Below, piece by piece: positions 1 through 11,431 of a DNA stretch of 11,431 nt (its first letter is position 1; each line of letters begins with the position of its first letter). Below the pieces are notes generated by a model. The model ran no database searches, had not been told where the DNA came from, and was given only the letters and a program-made list of their open reading frames with translations. The position numbers were made by a program, and so were the translations under genes. Source of the DNA: a virus. Location: the UHGV virus genome UHGV-1944538; one strand, written 5' to 3'.

Positions 1-35
1 CTACGGAATAGAGATAACACGAGGAGTGGTTAGAA

Positions 36-68
36 ATGGCTAAAGTTCTGGTGCTTTTACATAGCTAA
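36..68 (+). pseudogene. wrbA: 5' stub of wrbA left at attL: native start codon and first 22 nt of wrbA fused to element DNA, reading MAKVLVLLHS-stop
   Basis: 36-57 atggctaaagttctggtgcttt equals the start of the wrbA ORF whose continuation (ttattattccatgtacgg...) is found at 11321 onward; after position 57 the sequence diverges and an in-frame TAA follows at 66-68. Confidence 0.7.
51..57. repeat. attL core GTGCTTT (shared between wrbA and element)
   Basis: Left junction matches native wrbA through position 57; identical 7-mer at the right junction. Confidence 0.6.
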
Positions 69-368
69 ACACGTACATTCAACTACCTGTTAAAAACAGG
101 ACAATATCAGGTGAATCTCTATGCAATTTAAAGGCATTTCCCCAAGTATCTAAGCAGTTTTACACAGATTCTATGCAGTATCGGTATAGTCCCTTTTTAT
201 CCTAACTTATTGAAATATATAGAGAATCTGTGAAGTCTCTTTTCAGGGTAAACTGTATCGTGTTAGTCGTCCCTCTCTCGACTCCTAGAAAAGTGCTATA
301 TACAGGACTATATGACGCTATTCATGCAGTTGGTCACATGGTGTAACTATCAAACCCTTAACGATTTC

Positions 369-476
369 CTACGTGAAAGTTAGGAGTTGATGGTTATAGT
401 TCCTTCGTAGTTCCTCTTAAAAAATCACTTACAGACATCTTAATCTCTATACAGATTTCACGTAGAACACGCTTAA
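369..476 (+). repeat. Diverged third copy of the inverted-repeat element: arms CTACGTGAAA (369-378) and TTTCACGTAG (456-465), followed by CACGCTTAA (468-476)
   Basis: Arms and 3' tail identical to the 70-bp repeats at 6514 and 8659, but the spacer between arms is 77 nt instead of 38. Confidence 0.5.
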
Positions 477-993
477 TGCGTAAAAGAGTCATTATGTTAA
501 AAACGCACTGTATACGTATCAGTACTGATTTATAAGGGTTTTGTTTATTTGAAGATAAGAGGCTATACAGCACCTTGAGAGCATGTCTTGTAAGTCATTG
601 ACATATAAGGTCACAGAAGTTTGTGTCTGTTACAGAGAAAACTGGACAGGACTTCACAGAGCTATAAAATGTTACAGCTATTGATAGGTGAAATCTTCTT
701 GATAGATGCTTTGAAGTGTGGTGAAGGTTTCTTGATGTGGAGTTAACAGATGCTATGAAGAAAGTCAATAGTTGGTTATAGATATTTTAACTGCTTTTGC
801 AAAGGGGGTGCTATATCGTGAATCTGGGGTACTTAACAGCCATCAATTGAGTGTAGATATTTTTTAAGATTATCGGTGAAGGGGAATGTAGAGGGAGTGC
901 TACGATTTTTATAAAAAAATTAGAAGATGAAAAATCACTGTATAAACTTTAATCAGACCTATCGACAAGTTTATGTCAGGTCTTTATTAACTA

Positions 994-1518
994 TCAGCTA
1001 AAATTCCTGTATCCATATTTACCATGCAATTCCAGTGATGCAGCATCATAGGCTTTTGCAGCTTCTTCTGCTGTATTAAACTGACCCAGATAATGAGATT
1101 TTCCATTACAGCGTATTGTAGCCCAGAACCCCTTGTTATCCACTCTTGGGTGTACTCCCTTGTAACCTGATTTTGTTTTCTTTCTGGGTATCATGTTTGC
1201 CTGATTCTGCTCTTTGGTAACCTCTCGAAGATTGCTAATAGCATTATTTAGCGGGTCACCATCTATATGGTCAATCCATAGTTTAGCTTGTTTACCATGA
1301 TATAGATAGAAAATAACCTGATGCACCTTAAGTATTCTGAACTTACCATTAATCCGACAACCAAAAGCCAGATATTGTCTTGGTTTAGGATTTACAAGTG
1401 AACCCTCGATTTTTACACCTTTTCTAAATAATGTTCCAGATTCAAAATCTGCTGTAATATTTTCATTGATGTATCTTATAACTTCTTCAGGCCATGCCTT
1501 GGTATACCTAGTCACCAT
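994..1518 (-). CDS. HNH-AP2 family homing endonuclease (N-terminal NUMOD4/HNH_3-like domain plus C-terminal AP2 DNA-binding domain)
   Basis: 174-aa ORF. HNH-type motif WIDHIDGDPLNNAISNLREVTKEQN; AP2-type C-terminus GYKGVHPRVDNKGFWATIRCNGKSHYLGQFNTAEEAAKAYDAASLELHGKYGYRNF. AAGGA about 7 nt upstream of ATG on the minus strand. Confidence 0.85.
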   Translation of the reverse strand: MVTRYTKAWPEEVIRYINENITADFESGTLFRKGVKIEGSLVNPKPRQYLAFGCRINGKFRILKVHQVIFYLYHGKQAKLWIDHIDGDPLNNAISNLREVTKEQNQANMIPRKKTKSGYKGVHPRVDNKGFWATIRCNGKSHYLGQFNTAEEAAKAYDAASLELHGKYGYRNFS

Positions 1519-1576
1519 AATATTCCTTATTTCAATTAACTTGTTGAGGTAATACTACCAAGAAACTTCATATCAT

Positions 1577-1604
1577 ATTTTAGATAATGATTGATATACA
1601 TCAA
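1577..1604 (-). promoter_or_regulatory. Candidate sigma70-type promoter for the HNH-AP2 gene (minus strand TTGATG-N16-TAAAAT)
   Basis: Reverse complement of 1599-1604 is TTGATG and of 1577-1582 is TAAAAT, 16-nt spacer, about 60 nt upstream of the start at 1518. Confidence 0.3.
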
Positions 1605-2369
1605 AAAACTATTAAGTTCTCGGAAGAAGACTATATAGATTAATGATGCTCTTATTGTAGGAGCATCTATTCCCAACAAGGGAACTACACAGAAACTAGA
1701 GAATATGCTCTGTAACACCTTCACAGTATCTATATCAGGTCAGATTCAGAGGTCTTGATAGAATCTTCAAAGGTACTTGACAGATAACTATGAAGTTGCT
1801 AGGAAGGGATGTTTAACGGGAGGAAAGATACGATATAACCCGAAGGGAGAGTATCATCTTAACAATTATTCTTAAGAGATACCTTGAAAAGACACTTAAC
1901 AGAACCACCAAGAAGAGAGGGAACGATAAGACCCAGAGGTAGTGACCTGTTAAACAGTTCGTTTCAAAGCTCTTAAGAGTCTGTTAAGTAGGGTCATGTG
2001 ACAATCTTACCATTTTGTCAATGCTTTTGTCTTTGACCTAAATCAATAAAATGTATCGTTTGATATGTTTTTAAACAAAATAGTTAAAAATCTTTTTAGA
2101 GGTGCGCTTCGCTTGTGTCACCAATATCATTCTTCCCTGTCTAAGAGGGAAGTTACAGGGCATTTCAAAGCCCTCAATAGGCAAACCGAGGAATACGGAA
2201 AACCGAGGGAAGAAAACTATTGTGATTACCTTGAACAAGGTCTGTAAAGGTCGTTTAAGAGGTCGGTTAAGAAAGGAGCTTCCCTCTCTGGGGTTATCGC
2301 TCTTCTCTCGATTAGTGGATTGATTAAGAAGACCTCTGAAGTTTCTCTGTGAAGGTGCTGAACAGCTAT

Positions 2370-2423
2370 TATATATGGCTAATTACAACTTATTGAAAAA
2401 TAAACATTTTTAGAAATTACTGT
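2370..2423 (+). repeat. 54-bp direct repeat, copy A (TATATATGG..ATTACAACTTATTGAAAAATAA..TTTTAGAAATTACTGT)
   Basis: Aligns without gaps to 2465-2518 at a constant 95-bp offset with about 5 mismatches. Confidence 0.7.
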
Positions 2424-2464
2424 TAAGGTTGCAGAGTTGTCTGTGAAGAGACTTGTCAGTTCTC

Positions 2465-2518
2465 TATATATGGGTGATTACAACTTATTGAAAAATAAGA
2501 ACTTTTAGAAATTACTGT
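2465..2518 (+). repeat. 54-bp direct repeat, copy B
   Basis: See copy A; both lie in the ORF-poor 1725-3111 region. Confidence 0.7.
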
Positions 2519-2827
2519 CAGAGAGGTGAATACTTGATAGATACAGCTTTCCGGTTCTGTCAAGCTATTTTTTAATAGATAGCACAAAGTGCTAAAGACA
2601 CCCCTATACCATCTCGTACAGGGGGTTTTGGAGGGATTAACGGGGGTCTGTATGGTCGTTATCCTTAAGGTCAAGCGTCCATGTACGACCGAACAGTCTA
2701 AAGACAACAAGCACCCTGACGAGGACGTAGCGAAGTAACAGACCTGCGAACAGACCCACACCTCCACCAGCCCACAAATCAGGTGACCCCAATTCCTGAG
2801 GGAGATTTACCATTAAATTTCCTTGTA

Positions 2828-2925
2828 AGACGCTCTCAATCGCATTCTGACACAAAAAAGTACCTGACCTTATAGTTGACCTGAAGAGGACGTTTAACTC
2901 GTTACAGAGCGATTGAAGAGGTCTG
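2828..2925 (+). repeat. Inverted-repeat-bounded unit I (98 bp): 5' block AGACGCTCTCAATCGCATTCT..CAAAAAA, variable middle, 3' block ..CTCGTTACAGAGCGATTGAAGAGGTCTG
   Basis: 5' and 3' blocks are conserved with unit II at 4468-4588; CTCAATCGC (2835-2843) is the reverse complement of GCGATTGAG-type sequence at 2909-2917, with an extended imperfect inverted repeat of about 16 bp. Confidence 0.7.
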
Positions 2926-3031
2926 CGTGCAATGCAATAACCATGTGACCAAATACATGGCCACGCCTTTATATTTTACTCTCCCCATAGGACCATTATA
3001 CCACAGATGTTAATAAAATGTTAAAAAATAC

Positions 3032-3060
3032 TTGACATTAGCCTTTGAAACTGCTAGTAT
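3032..3060 (+). promoter_or_regulatory. Candidate sigma70-type promoter TTGACA-N17-TAGTAT upstream of the 3112 operon
   Basis: TTGACA at 3032-3037, 17-nt spacer, TAGTAT at 3055-3060, followed by TGTATATATGAGTTAACAGA; about 50 nt upstream of ATG 3112. Confidence 0.45.
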
Positions 3061-3111
3061 TGTATATATGAGTTAACAGAATAATAACATCTTATGAGGG
3101 TCAGAATATGA

Positions 3112-3666
3112 ATGAGAGATGCAGAATTTAGAGCGATGCTTCAAGCATCAAGGGAACGTAACAGACACAACGGTTACAGCTACACAGACACCCCCACCAG
3201 CTACGAAGTCCCAGCCTTTACCAAATCCGAACGTAAAAACATTGAAGCGGTCATTCGTAGCATTACGCCACGAGACAGATATATGCCAACCAGAAAGAGC
3301 ACGAAGAATAGCTTGAAACCTTTCCTGATGAGCTTTGATTCTTACGAGCAATTACCATCAAAAATTGAAGATGTAATTATCGGTACTTGTCGCAGTCTTG
3401 GAAGGGATAATTATCACCGGAAAGTTTTCTATTTACTGCGAAGTCTTGATGAGATTAGTTCAGGCGCAATAACAAATTATCTTCAGCGACAAGCAACCAG
3501 ACTTAGCTACGAATTACCGTCTGATGGGTATTGCGCTAATTTAAGTACCATTTGCAGTAAAGTTATCGAGACAATCAATCATCATGTTGAGGTTGGTAAT
3601 ATCAACCTTACGACAAGTGAGCCAGACTTTGAATTTGACGTATACGCACAAGCAGAGGAATTTTAA
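3112..3666 (+). CDS. Hypothetical protein, 184 aa, acidic C-terminus; first gene of a four-gene coupled operon
   Basis: Long ORF downstream of the promoter-like site; GAGGG upstream of the start; stop 3664-3666 sits 1 nt before the next start codon. Confidence 0.7.
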   Translation: MRDAEFRAMLQASRERNRHNGYSYTDTPTSYEVPAFTKSERKNIEAVIRSITPRDRYMPTRKSTKNSLKPFLMSFDSYEQLPSKIEDVIIGTCRSLGRDNYHRKVFYLLRSLDEISSGAITNYLQRQATRLSYELPSDGYCANLSTICSKVIETINHHVEVGNINLTTSEPDFEFDVYAQAEEF

Positions 3667-3667
3667 A

Positions 3668-3955
3668 ATGAAAAACAAACACACTTTAACCCGTATTACA
3701 AAGACAGCCTTTGACGAACTTAACCGAATCAAAAACATTACAGGTCTGCCACACTCAGCAGTGATGAAGCTTGCAATTAACCGTGATATTAACGAACAGG
3801 ATTTGCTTAATAGTCGCTTAGAGGCTGCAAGACACCATATCAGGATTAAGCAAGATGACCTTGATAGTCTGAAATCTTTAAATGTTTTTGGACTGGATTT
3901 AGCAAGGTTACTAAGTATCAAAATTCACAAGTTAGCGGATAAATTGGGGGTTTAA
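3668..3955 (+). CDS. Hypothetical small protein, 95 aa (start placed at the ATG with an RBS, not at the track's upstream ATG 3584)
   Basis: GAGGA at 3655-3659, 8 nt before ATG 3668; the track start at 3584 lies inside the preceding gene. Confidence 0.65.
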   Translation: MKNKHTLTRITKTAFDELNRIKNITGLPHSAVMKLAINRDINEQDLLNSRLEAARHHIRIKQDDLDSLKSLNVFGLDLARLLSIKIHKLADKLGV

Positions 3956-4454: not shown

Positions 4455-4467
4455 AAAAACAGCTTCT

Positions 4468-4588
4468 CAGACGCTCTCAATCGCATTCTAACGCAAAAAA
4501 CTATCTTATTTTAGGGTGGGTAATACCACTGTACAGACTACCCCTGAAAAAGACTGTTTAGCTCGTTACAGAGCGATTGAGGAGGTCT
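4468..4588 (+). repeat. Inverted-repeat-bounded unit II (121 bp), homolog of unit I with a longer variable middle
   Basis: 5' block 4468-4500 and 3' block 4551-4588 nearly identical to unit I; it fills the gap between the 4454 stop and the RBS of the 4611 gene. Confidence 0.7.
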
Positions 4589-4610
4589 GGTAAAAAGGAG
4601 ATTTTAAGAA

Positions 4611-4940
4611 ATGAGAGAATTAAACTTCCCGCTACAGATTTTCGTTGATAGCGACACTGCTATGATGGTGCAAAGCTTCACTGATGCAGGTATTAGCATT
4701 GACTTTGACAGGCTGTTAAAGCTAATGGCTGAGAACTCAGAAGCAATTGAAGATTTTATTCAGGAAATTGAAACTGGTGACCCACGTTTTATGTTTCCCG
4801 TTACCGACTCAAACATGAAGCGCCTTATTATTGAGGAAACTAACCGATACAGCGTTAGCCCTGAAAAATATCTCAAGGCGGCTATAGTAATTTTGTACGC
4901 TGACAATGTTTTGGTTACGGATTCGAAGGTGGTGCATTAA
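4611..4940 (+). CDS. Hypothetical protein, 109 aa, acidic
   Basis: AAGGAG at 4595-4600 upstream of ATG 4611; clean ORF. Confidence 0.65.
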   Translation: MRELNFPLQIFVDSDTAMMVQSFTDAGISIDFDRLLKLMAENSEAIEDFIQEIETGDPRFMFPVTDSNMKRLIIEETNRYSVSPEKYLKAAIVILYADNVLVTDSKVVH

Positions 4941-5076: not shown

Positions 5077-5268
5077 TATAGGAAGAGCAATTTTTCCTAA
5101 AATCATATTTTCAATAATCCGATGGATGGATATTCTGAGTTGGAAAGGTGCAATGCTTTTCGTCATGGCCTTTCAGTTTAGTCTGAGAGGCTATCTCAAA
5201 AAGTCTTTGTTCATTCATTATTGAACCCTTACAGCTTTGCCCTAATCATGAGTTAGGGCGTTTTCTTT
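5077..5268 (+). ncRNA. Candidate small RNA of about 190 nt between promoter 5042-5070 and the intrinsic terminator at 5239-5268; could instead encode a small hydrophobic peptide
   Basis: Promoter and terminator bracket a region with no RBS-preceded ORF; the track ORF 5042-5224 begins at the -35 hexamer itself. An internal 23-codon frame (5152-5223, MLFVMAFQFSLRGYLKKSLFIHY) lacks a good RBS. Confidence 0.3.
5239..5268 (+). terminator. Rho-independent terminator: stem GCCCTAA/TTAGGGC, 7-nt loop, then GTTTTCTTT
   Basis: Perfect 7-bp stem at 5239-5245 and 5253-5259 followed by a T-rich tract. Confidence 0.5.
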
Positions 5269-5337
5269 AAGAGTTTTAAACAGAGCTTTTAAAGAAAGTT
5301 TTTCCTGAAACTTCGTTAACGTTATAAGCAAACCTCC

Positions 5338-5370
5338 AAAGCCCTTCACAGAAACGTTTAGGGCTTTTCT
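5338..5370 (+). terminator. Second, weaker terminator-like hairpin: AAGCCCT ... AGGGCTT then TTCTT
   Basis: 7-bp stem with a 14-nt loop and a T-rich tail; shares the GCCCT..TTAGGGC..TTT pattern with the 5239 hairpin. Confidence 0.3.
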
Positions 5371-5468
5371 TAATAGAGCATCTTTAATAAATCGTTAAGT
5401 CATCTTCTAAGTGTATTGGCGTTGAAGGTGCTCTATTAAGAAATAAACCACACTTAGAGGAAGTTATA

Positions 5469-6179
5469 ATGACAAACGATTTATATATTAACGGTAAAAA
5501 GGTTGATAGCTTCGGTGACTGGTCGCCACAGACTGAACATCCAGCTATCGCTATTCAGCGTCAAGAGCATGACAAGCGCATTGAGCTTGAGCAAGAGCTA
5601 AAGATGTCACCAAAAACAACCATCTTTGTGTCTCCTGAGCCTCAAGAGATGCCTGATATTTGCAAGAGTGAAGCATTATTTAATCTTGAGCGTGAATATT
5701 ACCCACTGCTAAAAGAACAGCGCCTTAGATTAGATGACGCTTACGACAATGTGAAGAACTTTGAAGAGACTGAAAAGCCAACTGATTTTGATATTGAAGT
5801 GGAAATTAGACAAAACCCATTCGTATATTACTCAGTTGAGGATAATGATGGTTTTGGTACAGCAAGAGAGAATATCTCAAAAGTTCTTCAAAACATCCCT
5901 GAAGGATTCCGTTTAATTGATGTCAGACCAGCTTCACGCGGTACAGGTTCATATATTTTACTGTCTGATAAAACAGATGAAGAGATTTGTCAGTTAGCTG
6001 AAAAGAATCTACTTGAGCGTCATAGCAAAAAATTAAACAGATTTAAGCAAGAGCTTGCTAACCAGCTTAGAGCTATGAAGCAACTAATCAGTGACTATGA
6101 AACGCAGAAGAAGGTTGCTATGCAAGCCGATATTGAGCAGCTTACGAAGATTTCTCAGAAATATAGCAAGGCACTTTAA
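5469..6179 (+). CDS. Hypothetical protein, 236 aa, acidic with a predicted coiled-coil C-terminal third
   Basis: GAGGAAG 6 nt upstream of the ATG; long clean ORF; the C-terminus has a heptad-like charged pattern. Confidence 0.7.
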   Translation: MTNDLYINGKKVDSFGDWSPQTEHPAIAIQRQEHDKRIELEQELKMSPKTTIFVSPEPQEMPDICKSEALFNLEREYYPLLKEQRLRLDDAYDNVKNFEETEKPTDFDIEVEIRQNPFVYYSVEDNDGFGTARENISKVLQNIPEGFRLIDVRPASRGTGSYILLSDKTDEEICQLAEKNLLERHSKKLNRFKQELANQLRAMKQLISDYETQKKVAMQADIEQLTKISQKYSKAL

Positions 6180-6513: not shown

Positions 6514-6583
6514 TGCTACGTGAAATCTTCTGAACAGATATACCCACCAAAAATTATTTTTTACGTAGCTCACGCTTAACAGA
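6514..6583 (+). repeat. 70-bp direct repeat, copy 1, containing an 11-bp inverted repeat (GCTACGTGAAA ... TTTTACGTAGC, one mismatch) and a CACGCTTAACAGA tail; lies immediately upstream of the 6599 gene
   Basis: 67 of 70 identity with 8659-8728. Confidence 0.8.
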
Positions 6584-6598
6584 GGTGAAATATGAACA

Positions 6599-8647
6599 AT
6601 GGCACAATTTAAAGTTGATAGTTTTATCGTTGAGCTAGGCTTCAGCGAGAACGTTATTAAGGGCTTGCAAAGAGTTGAAAAGGCAGCTTTGCAGTCAGCA
6701 CAAAGAATTGAACGTAATTTGAATAGAGCGTTTAAGGTCGATACCAAGCAATTTGACAGCAATCTGACAAGTTCTTTGAAGTCAATGGAAGGAAAAATTA
6801 ATAAGACCTTTGACCGTCTGGAAGCTAGAGCAAAAAATACTAAAGCTTTCCAGTTTACCACCAGATTTAATGACACTGTTAATCCTCCAAAACAACCGAG
6901 ACAGCCACGAATTAGCGGAAACAGAGCAATCACAGCAGCTTATTCAGCTAATATGACCAAGCTGAAAGGTCTTAACCCAATTGTCGAGAAATACATTAAG
7001 AGCCAGTTTTACGCATTAAGTAGTAAAGCTGGTCAGATGGATAACACCAAGTTTAATGAAGCCCTTGCTAAACTAAATTCAAGTGTAAGAGAAGCAATCA
7101 CTAAAGCCAGAGGTCATACATCCACCAGCATTAACGGTGACAGAGCAGCTAATAGTCTTGATAGTTTGAGTTCAGCAGCAGTTAAAACAGCAGGTGCATT
7201 TATCAGCTTTCAAGCTGTACTATCCGCTTATCAGCGAGTAATGGAAGTTGGCCTTCAACGTGCATCATCGGAAAGAAGTATTGATTTCGTATTTGATAAA
7301 GATGCAGGCCAAGTAAAAGAGTTCACAAAGTCATTAGCTCAAACAACGGGTTTAGATATCGCTGAACTGCAATCACAGTTTGCTGGTTTTGGTGCTTCAG
7401 CTAAAGAGTCTATGGGTATTCAAGGTTCTGAAGAACTTTTTAAAAGTATGATTGGCTATTCTCGTTTAATGGGTCGAAGTGAAGAAGAGATTAAGCGAGC
7501 ACTGACAGCATTATCACAGATGGCTGGTAAGGGTCAGATTATGGCTGAAGAGCTTAAGGGGCAATTAGCTGAAGCTGTTCCTGGTATGGTTCAGGTATTC
7601 GCTAAAGCAACCGGAAAGACTGAACAGGAATTATTTGATGCCATGAAGAAGGGGGCTTTAAAATCTGCCGATACTCTTCAGAAGGTCACTCAGGAACTGA
7701 ATAGACAAATCACCGCTAAAGGTGGCTGGAAAGCTATTTCAGAAAGTACACAGGCACAGCTAGGGAACCTGAAAAACTCTTGGAATACCACGCTTGATAG
7801 TATCTTCAGAGGTTCTGAAAATGGTCTGCAAGATTTCACACGAAGCCTAACAACGCTTTTAAACGCTCTTGGTGGAAGTGGTAAAACATTAGGTGAAAGT
7901 TTTGGTAGCTTGATGAGCGATATGTCACATGGTGTCGATAACCTGACTGATATTAGTTACAGGGTAAGGGCGTTCTTTGACGAGGTGACATTGGCTTATC
8001 GTGGTTTAACCGATGAACAAAAGAAAGTTGTTGATGCTTTAGGTTCTGGCTTGATTAATAGTTTAAAAGTCTTGGCTGGTGTTATTGCTGTGAATAAAGT
8101 TGTTGGTGTAACCAGAAGTATTTACGGGCTTATGACTGCTATCACAAGATTAGGTCAGGTCGCTGATACTACAGTGGATAACGTGAATAGAAAGAACGGG
8201 AAACCATCAAGGTTTAATCTTGGGAATATGCTATTAGCTGGTAGTGCTATCTATGCAGGTTATGAGAGATTAGCTTCTACGCCTGAACGAATGGAAGCAC
8301 AAGCTAAATTACCAGAGCTGGCTAAAGAGTCTGGACTTAAGCCAGTATTTACTATGGACGATGTGAAAGGTTGGTTTAATAGTGCAGCTATGAATCTTGC
8401 TAACTTCCAGCATCCAGAATTAATCACCATGAGACAAGATGCGGCATTAACGAATACGGATATCCAAAGCCTGAGAGATGAAATTAGTGCTTTGAGCAAA
8501 CGTATTCAGGAGCCTGTGAAAGTTTCACTTGGTGGTGAAGTTGCCATTAAACCAGATGAAACCAGCTTTATGACCTTTAGCAGTAATATCTACGACCAAT
8601 ACGCAGAAGCTACGCTATTAAGTTCATCATTCCCAGAAGATGATTGA
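6599..8647 (+). CDS. 682-aa protein with a tape-measure-type domain (central GKGQIMAEELKGQLAEAVPGMVQVFAKATGKTEQELFDAMKKGALKSADTLQKVTQEL segment) and a coiled-coil-rich N-terminus
   Basis: Long ORF; the central segment resembles, from memory, the conserved domain of siphovirus/lambdoid tape measure proteins. GAGGTG lies 11 nt upstream of the ATG. Domain assignment not verified by search. Confidence 0.75.
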   Translation: MAQFKVDSFIVELGFSENVIKGLQRVEKAALQSAQRIERNLNRAFKVDTKQFDSNLTSSLKSMEGKINKTFDRLEARAKNTKAFQFTTRFNDTVNPPKQPRQPRISGNRAITAAYSANMTKLKGLNPIVEKYIKSQFYALSSKAGQMDNTKFNEALAKLNSSVREAITKARGHTSTSINGDRAANSLDSLSSAAVKTAGAFISFQAVLSAYQRVMEVGLQRASSERSIDFVFDKDAGQVKEFTKSLAQTTGLDIAELQSQFAGFGASAKESMGIQGSEELFKSMIGYSRLMGRSEEEIKRALTALSQMAGKGQIMAEELKGQLAEAVPGMVQVFAKATGKTEQELFDAMKKGALKSADTLQKVTQELNRQITAKGGWKAISESTQAQLGNLKNSWNTTLDSIFRGSENGLQDFTRSLTTLLNALGGSGKTLGESFGSLMSDMSHGVDNLTDISYRVRAFFDEVTLAYRGLTDEQKKVVDALGSGLINSLKVLAGVIAVNKVVGVTRSIYGLMTAITRLGQVADTTVDNVNRKNGKPSRFNLGNMLLAGSAIYAGYERLASTPERMEAQAKLPELAKESGLKPVFTMDDVKGWFNSAAMNLANFQHPELITMRQDAALTNTDIQSLRDEISALSKRIQEPVKVSLGGEVAIKPDETSFMTFSSNIYDQYAEATLLSSSFPEDD

Positions 8648-8658
8648 TAATAGTCGAA

Positions 8659-8728
8659 TGCTACGTGAAATCTCCTGAACGGATATACCCACCAAAAATT
8701 ATTTTTCACGTAGCTCACGCTTAACAGA
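8659..8728 (+). repeat. 70-bp direct repeat, copy 2 (perfect 11-bp inverted arms GCTACGTGAAA / TTTCACGTAGC), immediately after the 6599-8647 gene and upstream of the 8805 gene
   Basis: Near-identical to 6514-6583; the two copies bracket the tape-measure-like gene. Confidence 0.8.
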
Positions 8729-8804
8729 TAAAACACTTATATATCAAAGGCTTGGTTAAAAATGATTAAAATACACTAAGCCTTTGAAATCAAAGGAGAA
8801 TTTA

Positions 8805-9578
8805 ATGATTTACACTAATCAGCTTCGTTACACTGGCAAAGATGGCGTTTACTTCCACTTAAGAGATAATGTAGATGCCTTCTTAACTTTATCAGCAACT
8901 GAAAATATGGAATTTGACAGCCCTATGCAGGTAACTACACAGAACATGCAATCAGGGCAAACCGTCACAGATAATGTGCAAAGAGCACCCAGAACAATCA
9001 CTATTAGCGGTGTCGTTGTAGTTGGCTATGAAGGAAGCTTATTATTAACTCGTCAGGGTCAATTAGTAGAAAACTTCATTGACACTCTTGAAAGCTGGAG
9101 AGACCAGAAGCAAATTATTTCGGTCATCTGTAAAGACGGTATCAAAATTGATGATTCCATTATTACGAGTTTTAAAGCCTCTAAAGATGTTGGTATTTCA
9201 AATGGTCTAAGAGTCCAGCTAACTTTTCAGGAAATTAACTTTAAAGCTATTGTGGGTCAGACTGATATTTCATCTGCGACTGGAAAAGCCGCGACTACTA
9301 ATGATGGTGGTGCTACCAGTAAAAAGAATGCGGGTAACGTGACTACTGAACGCAATAACGCACCTATGTTGCTGTGTCAGGAACTGTACAGCTACTCAGC
9401 ATCTGAGCTATCTGATGAAGCGTTAAAAGCCCGTAGTAATTGCTCTAAAAATGTCACGGTGAAAGATGGTGTAAGCACCTTCTCAGATGCCGCTAATGCG
9501 CAAGCTTCAAAAGTGCTTAAGTCGGGTAATGCTTTACGGAAGTTTAGTGTGAATCCGAATAAGAAGGGCACTTATTGA
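8805..9578 (+). CDS. Hypothetical protein, 257 aa, with a Ser/Thr/Asn/Gly-rich linker ([30 protein letters not shown]); positionally a possible tail-module partner of the upstream gene
   Basis: AGGAG at 8794-8798, 6 nt before ATG 8805; the track's earlier start at 8784 is a TTG without an RBS. No confident domain assignment. Confidence 0.65.
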
Positions 9579-9597: not shown

Positions 9598-11241
9598 CTA
9601 AGCGTCCACCTCTTCCATATCACCAGCAGGATAAATCCTTGTTACTGGTTCACCAAAAATAAGCATATCATCTAGTGACTGCATCTCATCGGTTGCTTCT
9701 TCAAGCGTTAAGGTGTGGTCATCTTTACCATCAAGAGGGAAACCACGAATCATATTTCCATTGTGAAGATATATATCAACCAGCTTTTCATTACCAGAAA
9801 CAACAATCTCTTTCACCAGACGCTTAATGATAATCTGGGCTTCAGTTCTCCCCTCTACAGACTCCATATCAAGACCGCTTAAATCCAAGCTTGATACAGA
9901 TTTTACCCTCGCCTTTTCTCGTGATAACTGAACTATCAGTTCATCTTTTTCTTCCTGCTTAATCCGTAGTGCTTCTTGAATCTGAGTGATGTTAGGAAGC
10001 TGTATCAGCGTCTCAGTGAGTTTTTCCAGTTCACTATCAACGGTGTTTAGTCTGCGTTGTAGCTCATCTAATTTAGCTGTGTCAGTAGCTTCATCGTGTA
10101 GCTGTGACAGTTTGCTGAACAGACGACTACAAAGCTGTGTATCAAGTAACTTTCTGGACACTGTACCGTAGCTACAACGGGACTCCTTATTACCATTGCA
10201 ACGGTAAGTACCTTGATAAACGGGTTTACGTATCCCTGTAGGAGTCATTACAAGCCCACACTTACAACGGATAAGCCCCTTCAGTATGTTCACATATAGC
10301 CAGTGTTCACCGCTGGATGTTTTCCCCTTCCCTGTTTCCTCTAACAGTTGCTGTACAGCGTAAAACTTAGAGTCTGTGACAATCTGAGGATAGAACCCTT
10401 CAATTTCTTCACGTAACACTGTTTTACGGTCTTCTGTAGAAATCTTAGCGGGAAGGTAACCTAATACACTTCGTGAAGTCAGGATGTGTTTAACGCTTAA
10501 TGCTGACCAGTTGCCATCCGGTTTCTTAGTCTTGGATATTCTGACCTTACGCTGATTAATGGTCGGGTAACCTTGTTCGTTTAGCCATTTGCAGATAGCA
10601 AACATCGACATACCAGAAAGACGCTTGTCATAGATGATATTCACCAGTGACGCTTTATCTTCATCAACGATGTAGTGTGAACCGTCTTCTGATAGCTCTA
10701 ACCATCCGGGGGCTTGCTTACCCATAGGCTTCTTAAGTTCTCTTGCAAGCTGTGTTTTATGGTTCCAGACCTGAGCTATACGCTTTTGCTTAACAAGAGA
10801 TTCTTGGTGTGCTCGCTCAGCTATGATGATGTGCTTAATCAACTTCACAGGGTCTGTTAATGCTGATTTGTCGTAGAGTTCACCATCTCCCAGAGTCAGT
10901 ATAGAGACCCCTTTCCTCAGTATCTGCCTGACATCATCTATAGCTGTGTCGATATCAGCCCTACTGAAGCGGTCAAAGTTCTCTACAACAATCAAGGAAC
11001 CTTCTGGAATAGCCTCAGACATAACATTTTCAAACATACGTCTGAAGTCAGAACCTTGATTCTTATGTTGCTGGTGAAAACCAGATTTACCCTTATCAAC
11101 ATATCTGTGAGCAGGAAGAAGGTAATAATCGTTTTTGTGCTTAGAGTAGAAAGCATCAATGAGGTTTGTTTGCCGTCTTAAGGAGTCTCCTGAGTCTTGC
11201 TCTTTAGTACTCCACCTGATGTATGTCACTAGCAGCTTCAT
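9598..11241 (-). CDS. int: Large serine recombinase (serine integrase) of the element
   Basis: 547 aa. N-terminal resolvase-type motif YIRWSTKEQ with a candidate nucleophile Ser; Cys-rich zinc-ribbon-like segment [11 protein letters not shown]...[14 protein letters not shown]; C-terminal coiled coil. Located next to attR and read inward. Confidence 0.9.
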
Positions 11242-11292: not shown

Positions 11293-11431
11293 ATGAGTGT
11301 TAAGGCAAGAATACTAGTGCTTTATTATTCCATGTACGGACATATTGAAACGATGGCACGCGCAGTTGCTGAGGGTGCAAGCAAAGTCGATGGCGCAGAA
11401 GTTGTCGTTAAGCGTGTACCGGAAACCATGC
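11293..11431 (+). CDS. wrbA: wrbA, NAD(P)H:quinone oxidoreductase, 5' part with element-supplied start ([46 protein letters not shown]); partial, runs off the window
   Basis: From 11317 the sequence and translation match the WrbA N-terminus as I remember it (native [43 protein letters not shown]); AGGAG at 11279-11283 upstream of the new ATG. Confidence 0.85.
11317..11323. repeat. attR core GTGCTTT
   Basis: Identical to 51-57; wrbA identity resumes exactly here. Confidence 0.6.

Follow-up and report, generated by a model that had tools for sequence, protein, structure and literature searches.

Positions 1725-3111 of UHGV virus genome UHGV-1944538, an 11,431-nt stretch of DNA referred to here as the window, were singled out in an earlier note as a region poor in open reading frames (ORFs) that might hold a replication origin or packaging site dependent on a helper. 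The window is a whole chromosomal island of Escherichia coli, ~11.3 kb long (range 11.3-11.5 kb), together with its edges, and 1725-3111 is part of ~3 kb of conserved, mostly non-coding DNA. Two pieces of that DNA resemble the direct terminal repeat (DTR) of Felix O1-type phages (Felixounavirus). With homology, anatomy and conservation established, we infer a satellite lifestyle and a role in packaging and/or replication, in which the DTR-like region would mimic the terminus of the helper's genome; the chances of such mimicry we regard as evenly balanced. The observation that prompted this work is partly confirmed, and its interpretation partly supported, for reasons other than those originally given. 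Our comparison took in 15 annotated E. coli loci, three loci from E. albertii/Citrobacter genomes and 78 metagenome loci.

Homology to the terminal repeat of Felix O1-type phages

The DTR of phage UAB_Phi87 was determined as 608 bp by Bal31 digestion and run-off sequencing (PMC4837284), and terminal repeats of similar size have been reported for Felix O1 and FO1a (PMC4837284, PMC3185647). The 618-bp DTR annotated in the UAB_69 record corresponds to ~49,410-50,004 of Felixounavirus garuso; the BPS15Q2 record opens 12 nt before the left boundary of the DTR, and several further phage records have one of their ends here, or contain the region twice. Two other guides to the physical ends were set aside: the ends of the UAB_Phi87 record, whose start is arbitrary and lies in the tRNA region, and the terminal repeat of PC79-13, which at 127 bp was judged to be an assembler overlap.

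A blastn search of the region against phages and plasmids gave no match, and the homology emerged with profiles only. Sharing of k-mers with the non-coding DNA of the island is highest at a 1.65-kb ORF-free region of garuso, ~48,960-50,600 (z = 4.3-5.2). The segment that we call block A, represented in an nhmmer search by a profile of 1725-2034 from 61 distinct island copies, matched garuso 49,533-49,777 (E=2.9e-7, 25.3 bits), and a profile of 41 distinct copies of 780-960 matched 49,952-50,120 (E=1e-8, 30.0 bits). In the reverse direction, a profile of four phages found only 1882-1972 (E=1.1e-6) and 743-865 (E=5.6e-5) in the window. None of 300 dinucleotide shuffles of the phage region reached the observed scores, the best attaining 8.7 and 6.0 bits, and a reversed-genome control yielded nothing better than E = 3. 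Profile searches of the island blocks 84-780, 2153-2640 and 2822-2925 found no phage counterpart. Taken together, the profile searches indicate that the resemblance between island and phage DTR is homology rather than a matter of style. Because the phage target is the terminal repeat, block A corresponds to the DTR interior, and the second piece crosses its right boundary:

~1745-2010, + strand: block A, DTR-interior homolog, matching garuso 49,533-49,777; shared core AGGGAACGATAAGA..GTAGTGACC
743-951, + strand: homolog of the DTR right boundary and ~115 nt beyond it, matching garuso 49,952-50,120

Block A occurs in two allele classes and holds CTGTNAAG at 1776 (-), 1895 (-) and 1981 (+), along with two copies of the palindrome CTCTTAAGAG. 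The right boundary of the phage DTR falls between GCTACCAA and GCAGATATACATCC, and the Citrobacter island retains GTACCAAGCAGACATAGACC at this point. In minimal islands the two DTR-like pieces lie 100-130 nt apart.

Island and phage are also both rich in CTGTNAAG. Its count in the window is 17, where 2.3 would be expected (0 of 200 shuffles get that far), and 12 of the 17 copies lie in 1-3111. For garuso the count is 69 against ~11 expected, including eight copies inside the DTR and ten within 700 nt of the 1.65-kb ORF-free region. Several of the island sites are retained in 88-97% of distinct sequences.

An island tied to Felix O1-type phages

The island appears to represent a common and hitherto undescribed family of E. 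coli chromosomal islands; the literature yielded no description of it or of any Felixounavirus satellite. Homologs of 1725-3111 are present in 406-441 of 5426 complete E. coli genomes (~8%), always on the chromosome, and also in Citrobacter. The copy in E. coli ES5, 91.6% identical to the window, sits between ymdF and wrbA. Insertion takes place in the first codons, at the 5' end, of wrbA, and the integration enzyme is a large serine recombinase encoded at 9598-11241 on the minus strand. Related islands are found elsewhere, at yecE (DUF72), near yciI/kch and at further sites. A tRNA scan detected no tRNA gene. The attachment sites were delimited from the junctions of a dimer contig:

~55-62: attL, crossover core at the 5' end of wrbA, between ATGGCTAAAGTTCTGGTGCTTT and TACATAGC
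~11317-11323: attR, between AATACTAGTGCTTT and ATTATTCC

At the two edges (window 35-62 and 11293-11325), a start supplied by the island replaces the N-terminus of wrbA (MAKVLVL), leaving the gene intact, and the original wrbA start remains at attL.

The link to a specific helper is provided in part by two tail genes, annotated from profile libraries:

6599-8647: tape-measure gene
8784-9578: Dit-like tail gene

Both share 93-95% DNA identity with Felixounavirus genes. In the phage they are neighbours in one operon, whereas in the island a separate copy of a 70-nt repeat stands in front of each (6514-6583 and 8659-8728; 96% identical). This repeat contains an inverted pair, CTACGTGAAA / TTTxACGTAG (read as TTTTACGTAG in one copy and TTTCACGTAG in the other), and its 3' end, CACGCTTAACAGAGGTG, adjoins the start codon; related pieces occur at 369-378 and 456-492. 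Since the phage has no counterpart, the repeat looks like an expression signal specific to the island. The tape-measure protein is 682 aa long in the island and 735 aa in garuso; were the island version used in assembly, tails would be shorter, or tail assembly of the helper would be disturbed.

The second tie is the complete lack of GATC. The 11,431-nt window contains none where 43 would be expected, the 85,759 nt of garuso contain none against 300 expected, and ~18 kb from five other Felixounavirus records are likewise GATC-free. Flanking E. coli DNA has a normal GATC density, and the GATC-free stretch begins at the island edge in ~65 loci. A Dam-like methyltransferase is among the cargo of some islands.

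Beyond these, the island holds two HNH endonuclease genes and several ORFs that belong to no family. Searches of Pfam, PHROGs, NCBIfam and PADLOC recognised neither an initiator nor a terminase, which bears out the earlier remark that no replication initiator could be seen. An integrase, att sites and a size small relative to the helper (11.3-11.5 kb against 86-88 kb) are what a phage satellite would be expected to have, and tail genes, GATC avoidance and DTR homology all point to one helper group. The simplest interpretation makes the island a satellite of lytic phages of the Felix O1 type.

Three further observations concern the phage side. A ~70-nt element is repeated between small early genes at garuso 45,376-48,704. 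Window 5225-5470, upstream of a 236-aa ORF, has a weak profile match (E=0.002) to garuso 61,935-62,016, a spacer of the tRNA-gene region, and the rightward promoter region at 2922-3111 weakly resembles a promoter-like site at garuso 47,889-47,940 (E=0.006).

How a copied terminus might be used

In the reading that we favour, 1725-3111 would be the right-hand part of a ~3-kb control region at the island end opposite the integrase gene. The part that matters most for mobility would be the look-alike of the helper's genome end (~1745-2010 for the interior, ~743-951 for the right boundary), which is the site of cutting and packaging of the helper's DNA and probably also of its first transcription. 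By virtue of this copied terminal repeat, phage machinery would handle island DNA as phage DNA. The proteins recruited would be those that act at phage genome ends, most likely the terminase, which cuts and packages concatemers; phage factors that start replication or early transcription are further candidates. An element devoid of a recognisable initiator or terminase could thereby obtain amplification, packaging or both. What remains of the stretch would be the island's own: a cassette feeding a cargo slot, a 95-nt repeat unit with a hairpin-rich block, a small gene and divergent promoters. Packaging is the best-founded version of this scheme, because satellites that copy the cos or pac sites of their helpers are well known.

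At ~1/7.6 of the helper genome, the island has a size that may fit either small capsids, as for the satellite PLE, or concatemers, as for PICMI. One metagenome contig (OOBX01000469.1; 23,009 nt) carries two head-to-tail island copies, 99.99% identical with a period of 11,477 nt; it begins in chromosomal DNA upstream of wrbA and has an attP-type junction between the copies. Such a tandem dimer is expected if a dimeric or concatemeric form integrated, and is compatible with concatemeric intermediates without being proof of them. We tentatively extend the scheme, as a possibility somewhat doubtful in its entirety, to a new family of Felix O1-type satellites without initiator or terminase, which would use the rearranged DTR for replication and cutting by the helper, perhaps travel as concatemers of ~8 units in full-size heads, and have shed GATC for the same reason as the helper, one possibility being escape from an attack aimed at GATC in host DNA during infection.

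Several points weigh against the terminus-mimic interpretation. The order of the two pieces is opposite to that in the phage, with the boundary first and the interior second, and profile searches found no homolog of the left DTR boundary in the island. There is thus sequence homology to the helper terminus, but not the same arrangement with both boundaries, and a packaging substrate has therefore not simply been copied. The DTR-like pieces are only ~60-65% similar to the phage, and ~30% of island alleles have a diverged block A core. The most constrained block of the region, 2466-2600, lacks a phage counterpart and is therefore left unexplained by the model. Among viral contigs of IMG/VR, none matches the near-invariant part of this block exactly, and the four relatives found there of the 184-aa protein encoded from 3112 (ORF184) sit on contigs of 25-54 kb, which offer no evidence of packaging. 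Induction, replication and packaging are presumed, and the data do not separate roles of the DTR-like DNA in packaging, replication and transcription. They are compatible with two further readings as well: a regulatory one, in which sites for phage proteins serve to sense or time infection, and one in which the DNA is a decoy.

The 95-nt repeat unit and the question of an origin

The feature on which the idea of an origin had been built is a pair of direct repeats, which lie next to a set of allele-specific ones:

2345-2518, + strand: 95-nt repeat unit in two copies, with 54-nt cores at 2370-2423 and 2465-2518
2183-2275, + strand: allele-specific repeats, comprising AAACCGAGG twice and an array of 12-nt GGTCnGTTAAG-type repeats at 2242-2275, in three or four copies by locus

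The 54-nt cores, although not the region's most important feature, were found as described, 95 nt apart and 91% identical, and TRF reports 2.0 copies of period 95 at 2370-2558. A third, partial copy of the unit lies at 204-235. Each unit holds an IHF-like site, TTTCAATAAGTTG, with one mismatch and a segment of 88% A+T; all three copies of the core word AACTTATTGAAA lie on the + strand. The repeated words pointed out previously are indeed over-represented: CTGTGAAG, which stands before each copy of the 95-nt unit, occurs seven times in the window (~0.26 expected), and CTTGATAGA three times, all on the + strand (~0.15 expected). The tandem AAACCGAGG motif is likewise present, at 2183 and 2200. 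A hairpin CTTCCCT/AGGGAAG also exists, at 2132-2152 rather than at 2143-2160 as first placed; the other common allele retains neither this hairpin nor the AAACCGAGG pair.

Copy number of the unit varies, with one copy in 22 loci, two in 48 and three in one, at a spacing of 93-97 nt. The proximal copy is present in every locus and, together with the next 80 nt, is the most constrained DNA of the region. Single-copy loci show that the tandem arrangement is dispensable. Neither the 54-nt unit, whose search in phages the earlier note had proposed, nor the invariant block that follows it has a counterpart in the phage.

Could the repeats form an autonomous iteron-type origin, bound together with the A+T-rich and invariant DNA by an island initiator of an unrecognised kind? 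The direct repeats are spaced by about nine helical turns, each unit combines an IHF-like site (at 2386 and 2481) with strongly A+T-rich DNA (85-88% at 2380-2420, as at 2060-2100), the core word is confined to one strand, and the proximal unit with its flank is very strongly conserved. There is a precedent in the origin of PLE, where RepA binds repeat 3 of the non-coding region (PMC7145576). An iteron origin would, however, be expected to show several, usually at least three, short in-phase repeats of ~17-22 bp, whereas the units here are 54 nt with a period of 95 nt and a single one suffices in 22 of 71 loci, about a third. It would also be expected to have its Rep gene on the element, and no Rep, primase or helicase family was recognised by the four profile libraries. 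No DnaA box was found in 1725-3111. The neighbouring ORF184 gave no hit in a PDB sequence search, and its AlphaFold model is all-helical, of low confidence (pLDDT 66) and without a Foldseek match. A classical iteron origin is therefore poorly supported, and we think it improbable that the repeats act in this way.

Nor do the repeats stand beside a promoter, as had been supposed: the strong promoter at 3032-3060 is ~500 nt away. What survives of the proposal is the general idea of a helper-dependent origin or packaging site, which gains from the satellite-like character of the island, its lack of a recognisable initiator or terminase, and the DTR homology at ~1745-2010; the 54-nt repeats do not carry it.

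The protein of ~95 aa encoded after ORF184 (3668-3955) has, in our own reading, a ribbon-helix-helix sequence pattern, and has a weak, sub-threshold match to a P27-family small terminase subunit (TIGR01558, E=0.005). Either the repeats or the terminus look-alike could be the DNA that this protein binds.

A near-invariant block and a regulatory alternative

Directly downstream of the repeat units, and upstream of a pair of divergent promoters, the region takes on features of transcription control:

2519-2600, + strand: near-invariant block, 95-99% identical over ~60 distinct sequences, with hairpins at 2533-2564 and 2580-2594 and an A/U-rich stretch between them
2601-2632: bidirectional terminator-like element, a G+C-rich hairpin (2601-2624) with TTTT after it on the + strand
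2995-3060: divergent sigma-70-type promoters, 92% conserved
3024-2995: leftward promoter, TTAACA-18-TATAAT, strong, directed towards the small gene described below
3032-3060: rightward promoter, TTGACA-17-TAGTAT, strong, directed towards ORF184 at 3112

The near-invariant block might be the body of a small RNA or a site at which a protein binds. The + strand fold of 2519-2634 comprises two hairpins together with an A/U-rich linker and a U-tailed terminator (z = -3.1), and 0 of 200 shuffles fold as well. Some alleles carry the exact reverse complement of the hairpin at 2601-2624, with the structure kept, and this hairpin could serve as a transcription terminator from both sides. The module 2345-2636 is specific to the island, and its folded part is shaped like a small regulatory RNA.

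These features lend themselves to an alternative in which the region is a helper-responsive regulatory hub: arrays of CTGTNAAG and the DTR-like segments would bind a phage or island protein that times the expression of island genes or sets off excision upon infection, and 2519-2632 would be a small RNA, transcribed from the repeat unit, that acts on phage or island genes. CTGTNAAG-type words do stand directly upstream of three island genes (5344, 6575, 8720), and divergent promoters and a terminator amount to a transcription-oriented organisation. The three hairpins of 2519-2634 end in a U-tailed terminator, a G-U pair in the first stem favours the + strand, and the block is conserved at 95-99% where neighbouring genes differ by up to 35%. 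The satellite PLE likewise has a 2.7-kb non-coding region (PMC7145576).

The binding protein is hypothetical, however, and several results weigh against the RNA. Rfam 15 gave no match at E<=1 over the whole window on both strands, no convincing sigma-70 promoter is rightly placed on the + strand, and 2519-2632 varies too little for a covariation test. Complementarity to the phage of the kind expected for small RNA targets is at chance level, limited to 13-14-mers. A structured RNA in 1725-2034, which includes block A, was considered and rejected: alifold yields -5 to -7 kcal/mol over 355 columns, with no consensus structure, and the sole co-varying pairs belong to the two palindrome copies. 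Folded as single sequences, 1800-1900, 1960-2105 and 2345-2465 do not surpass their shuffles. We consider the regulatory alternative rather unlikely.

A small gene, cargo slots and a mosaic layout

The ORF-poor DNA is larger than 1725-3111: it also takes in 63-993, because the HNH gene that lies between is an optional insertion. Its remaining parts are as follows:

63-993: left non-coding arm, starting just inside attL, with CTGTNAAG at 228, 652 and 832; conserved in 36-64 loci
951-1666: cargo slot 1, holding an HNH-AP2 gene, a small serine recombinase, or (in minimal islands) only 101-133 nt
994-1518, - strand: HNH-AP2 homing-type endonuclease gene, the optional insertion in slot 1
1966-2121, + strand: A+T-rich conserved block, 93-97% conserved; at its end stand a Shine-Dalgarno-like AGAGGTG and, at 2113, a TTG
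2121-2153: cargo slot 2, holding a Dam-like N6-adenine methyltransferase in 17 loci
2637-2813, - strand: small ORF of 58 aa (62 in some alleles) with one hydrophobic helix and AAGGAA ahead of it
2822-2925, + strand: optional segment that duplicates the 5' region (4463-4589) of the ORF at 4611; absent in several loci

Most of the region is unannotated, as described, with no annotated coding sequence in most of the 441 E. coli genomes, but it is not devoid of genes. All of 17 loci, the Citrobacter one among them (59% amino-acid identity), keep the small ORF at 2637-2813 intact; its changes are conservative and its indels, of 12 and 6 nt, are in frame. Substitutions follow a period of three only in 2656-2835 (phase counts 19/1/9, p = 2e-4). 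By these protein-coding criteria it is a real membrane-protein gene, which PGAP annotates in some genomes, and its product has no homolog in the phage collection. A decayed pseudogene, the finding that had been named as telling against an origin, was not detected: a local tblastn search with cargo proteins of other islands (the Dam-like methyltransferase and the small recombinase) revealed no remnant, and coding periodicity is lacking outside the small ORF.

The TTG at 2113 is the start of the Dam-like methyltransferase in 17 loci; 1966-2121 therefore looks like an expression cassette for slot 2, and probably is one. At 2822-2925, the duplicated segment (~105-125 nt) is followed by an ORF of a mere two codons. 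Conservation is uneven, with 1966-2105 and 2466-2830 at 90-99% identity and the rest, a mosaic, at 65-85%; in some segments it exceeds that of the adjacent protein genes. Small gene, terminator, promoters and cargo slots make the region a mosaic rather than one element.

A mosaic with alternative alleles, two cargo slots, an optional duplicated segment and a variable number of repeat units is also what might be left by recombination with phages and by gain and loss of genes at an insertion hot spot, with no role in cis. That the region consists of such non-functional leftovers is very unlikely, given that its blocks are retained in ~8% of E. coli genomes and in Citrobacter, that some segments outdo adjacent protein genes in conservation, that single motif sites persist in 88-97% of distinct sequences, and that no cargo-gene remnant or additional coding periodicity was found.

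Relation to known satellites and significance

Satellites that carry the packaging signal of their helper include P4, with the cos of P2, cos-type SaPIs such as SaPIbov5, and E. coli PICIs with lambdoid cos sites. The likeness to the present island would lie in a satellite without terminase copying a site that the helper terminase recognises. In those cases the helper is temperate and its cos or pac site short. Here the helper is lytic and its genome ends in short exact direct terminal repeats, the pieces are rearranged and only distantly similar (~60-65%), and packaging is presumed. A further parallel is the T7-type concatemer junction, in which a short exact terminal repeat is flanked by arrays of short repeats: short words at a phase of ~11 nt crowd the Felixounavirus terminal repeat and the DNA on either side of it, and the island contains the same word family. 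In the island these words are scattered, however, and not regularly phased except at 2242-2275.

PLE is similar in architecture, being a chromosomal island with a large serine recombinase and a lytic myovirus helper (presumed here), ~1/7-1/8 the size of the helper genome, with a non-coding region of 2.7-3 kb that holds several kinds of repeat (PMC7145576). No homology links the two, in sequence or in genes. The RepA_N initiator that PLE encodes binds an iteron within the non-coding region, while no initiator is recognisable in the present island, which in turn has helper-derived tail genes and a terminal-repeat look-alike. PICMI, a minimalist satellite of virulent vibriophages, is again a small island of ~1/8 of its helper without a recognisable capsid-remodelling gene; it is packaged as an 8-mer concatemer (PMC10803314), to which the head-to-tail dimer on one metagenome contig may be compared. 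It differs in its tyrosine integrase, AlpA, primase and integration next to fis, and in its case a helper packaging site could not be identified. Few satellites of strictly lytic phages are known at all, namely PLE and PICMI in vibrios (PMC7145576, PMC10803314) and Mulch/Flayer in Streptomyces. The strategy of copying a helper terminus is known and its Felix O1-associated version apparently new, with what it does in the cell inferred.

Felix O1-type phages are widely used in typing, biocontrol and therapy of Salmonella and E. coli. An island present in ~8% of complete E. coli genomes, with a copy of the phage's terminal repeat and near-identical tail genes, could alter the efficacy of such phages, and might in addition carry genes from strain to strain. 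Its look-alike of the phage terminus would provide a handle on the sequences that the packaging or replication machinery of Felixounavirus recognises, and the total absence of GATC shared by island and phage may serve as a usable signature for finding further satellites of this phage group.

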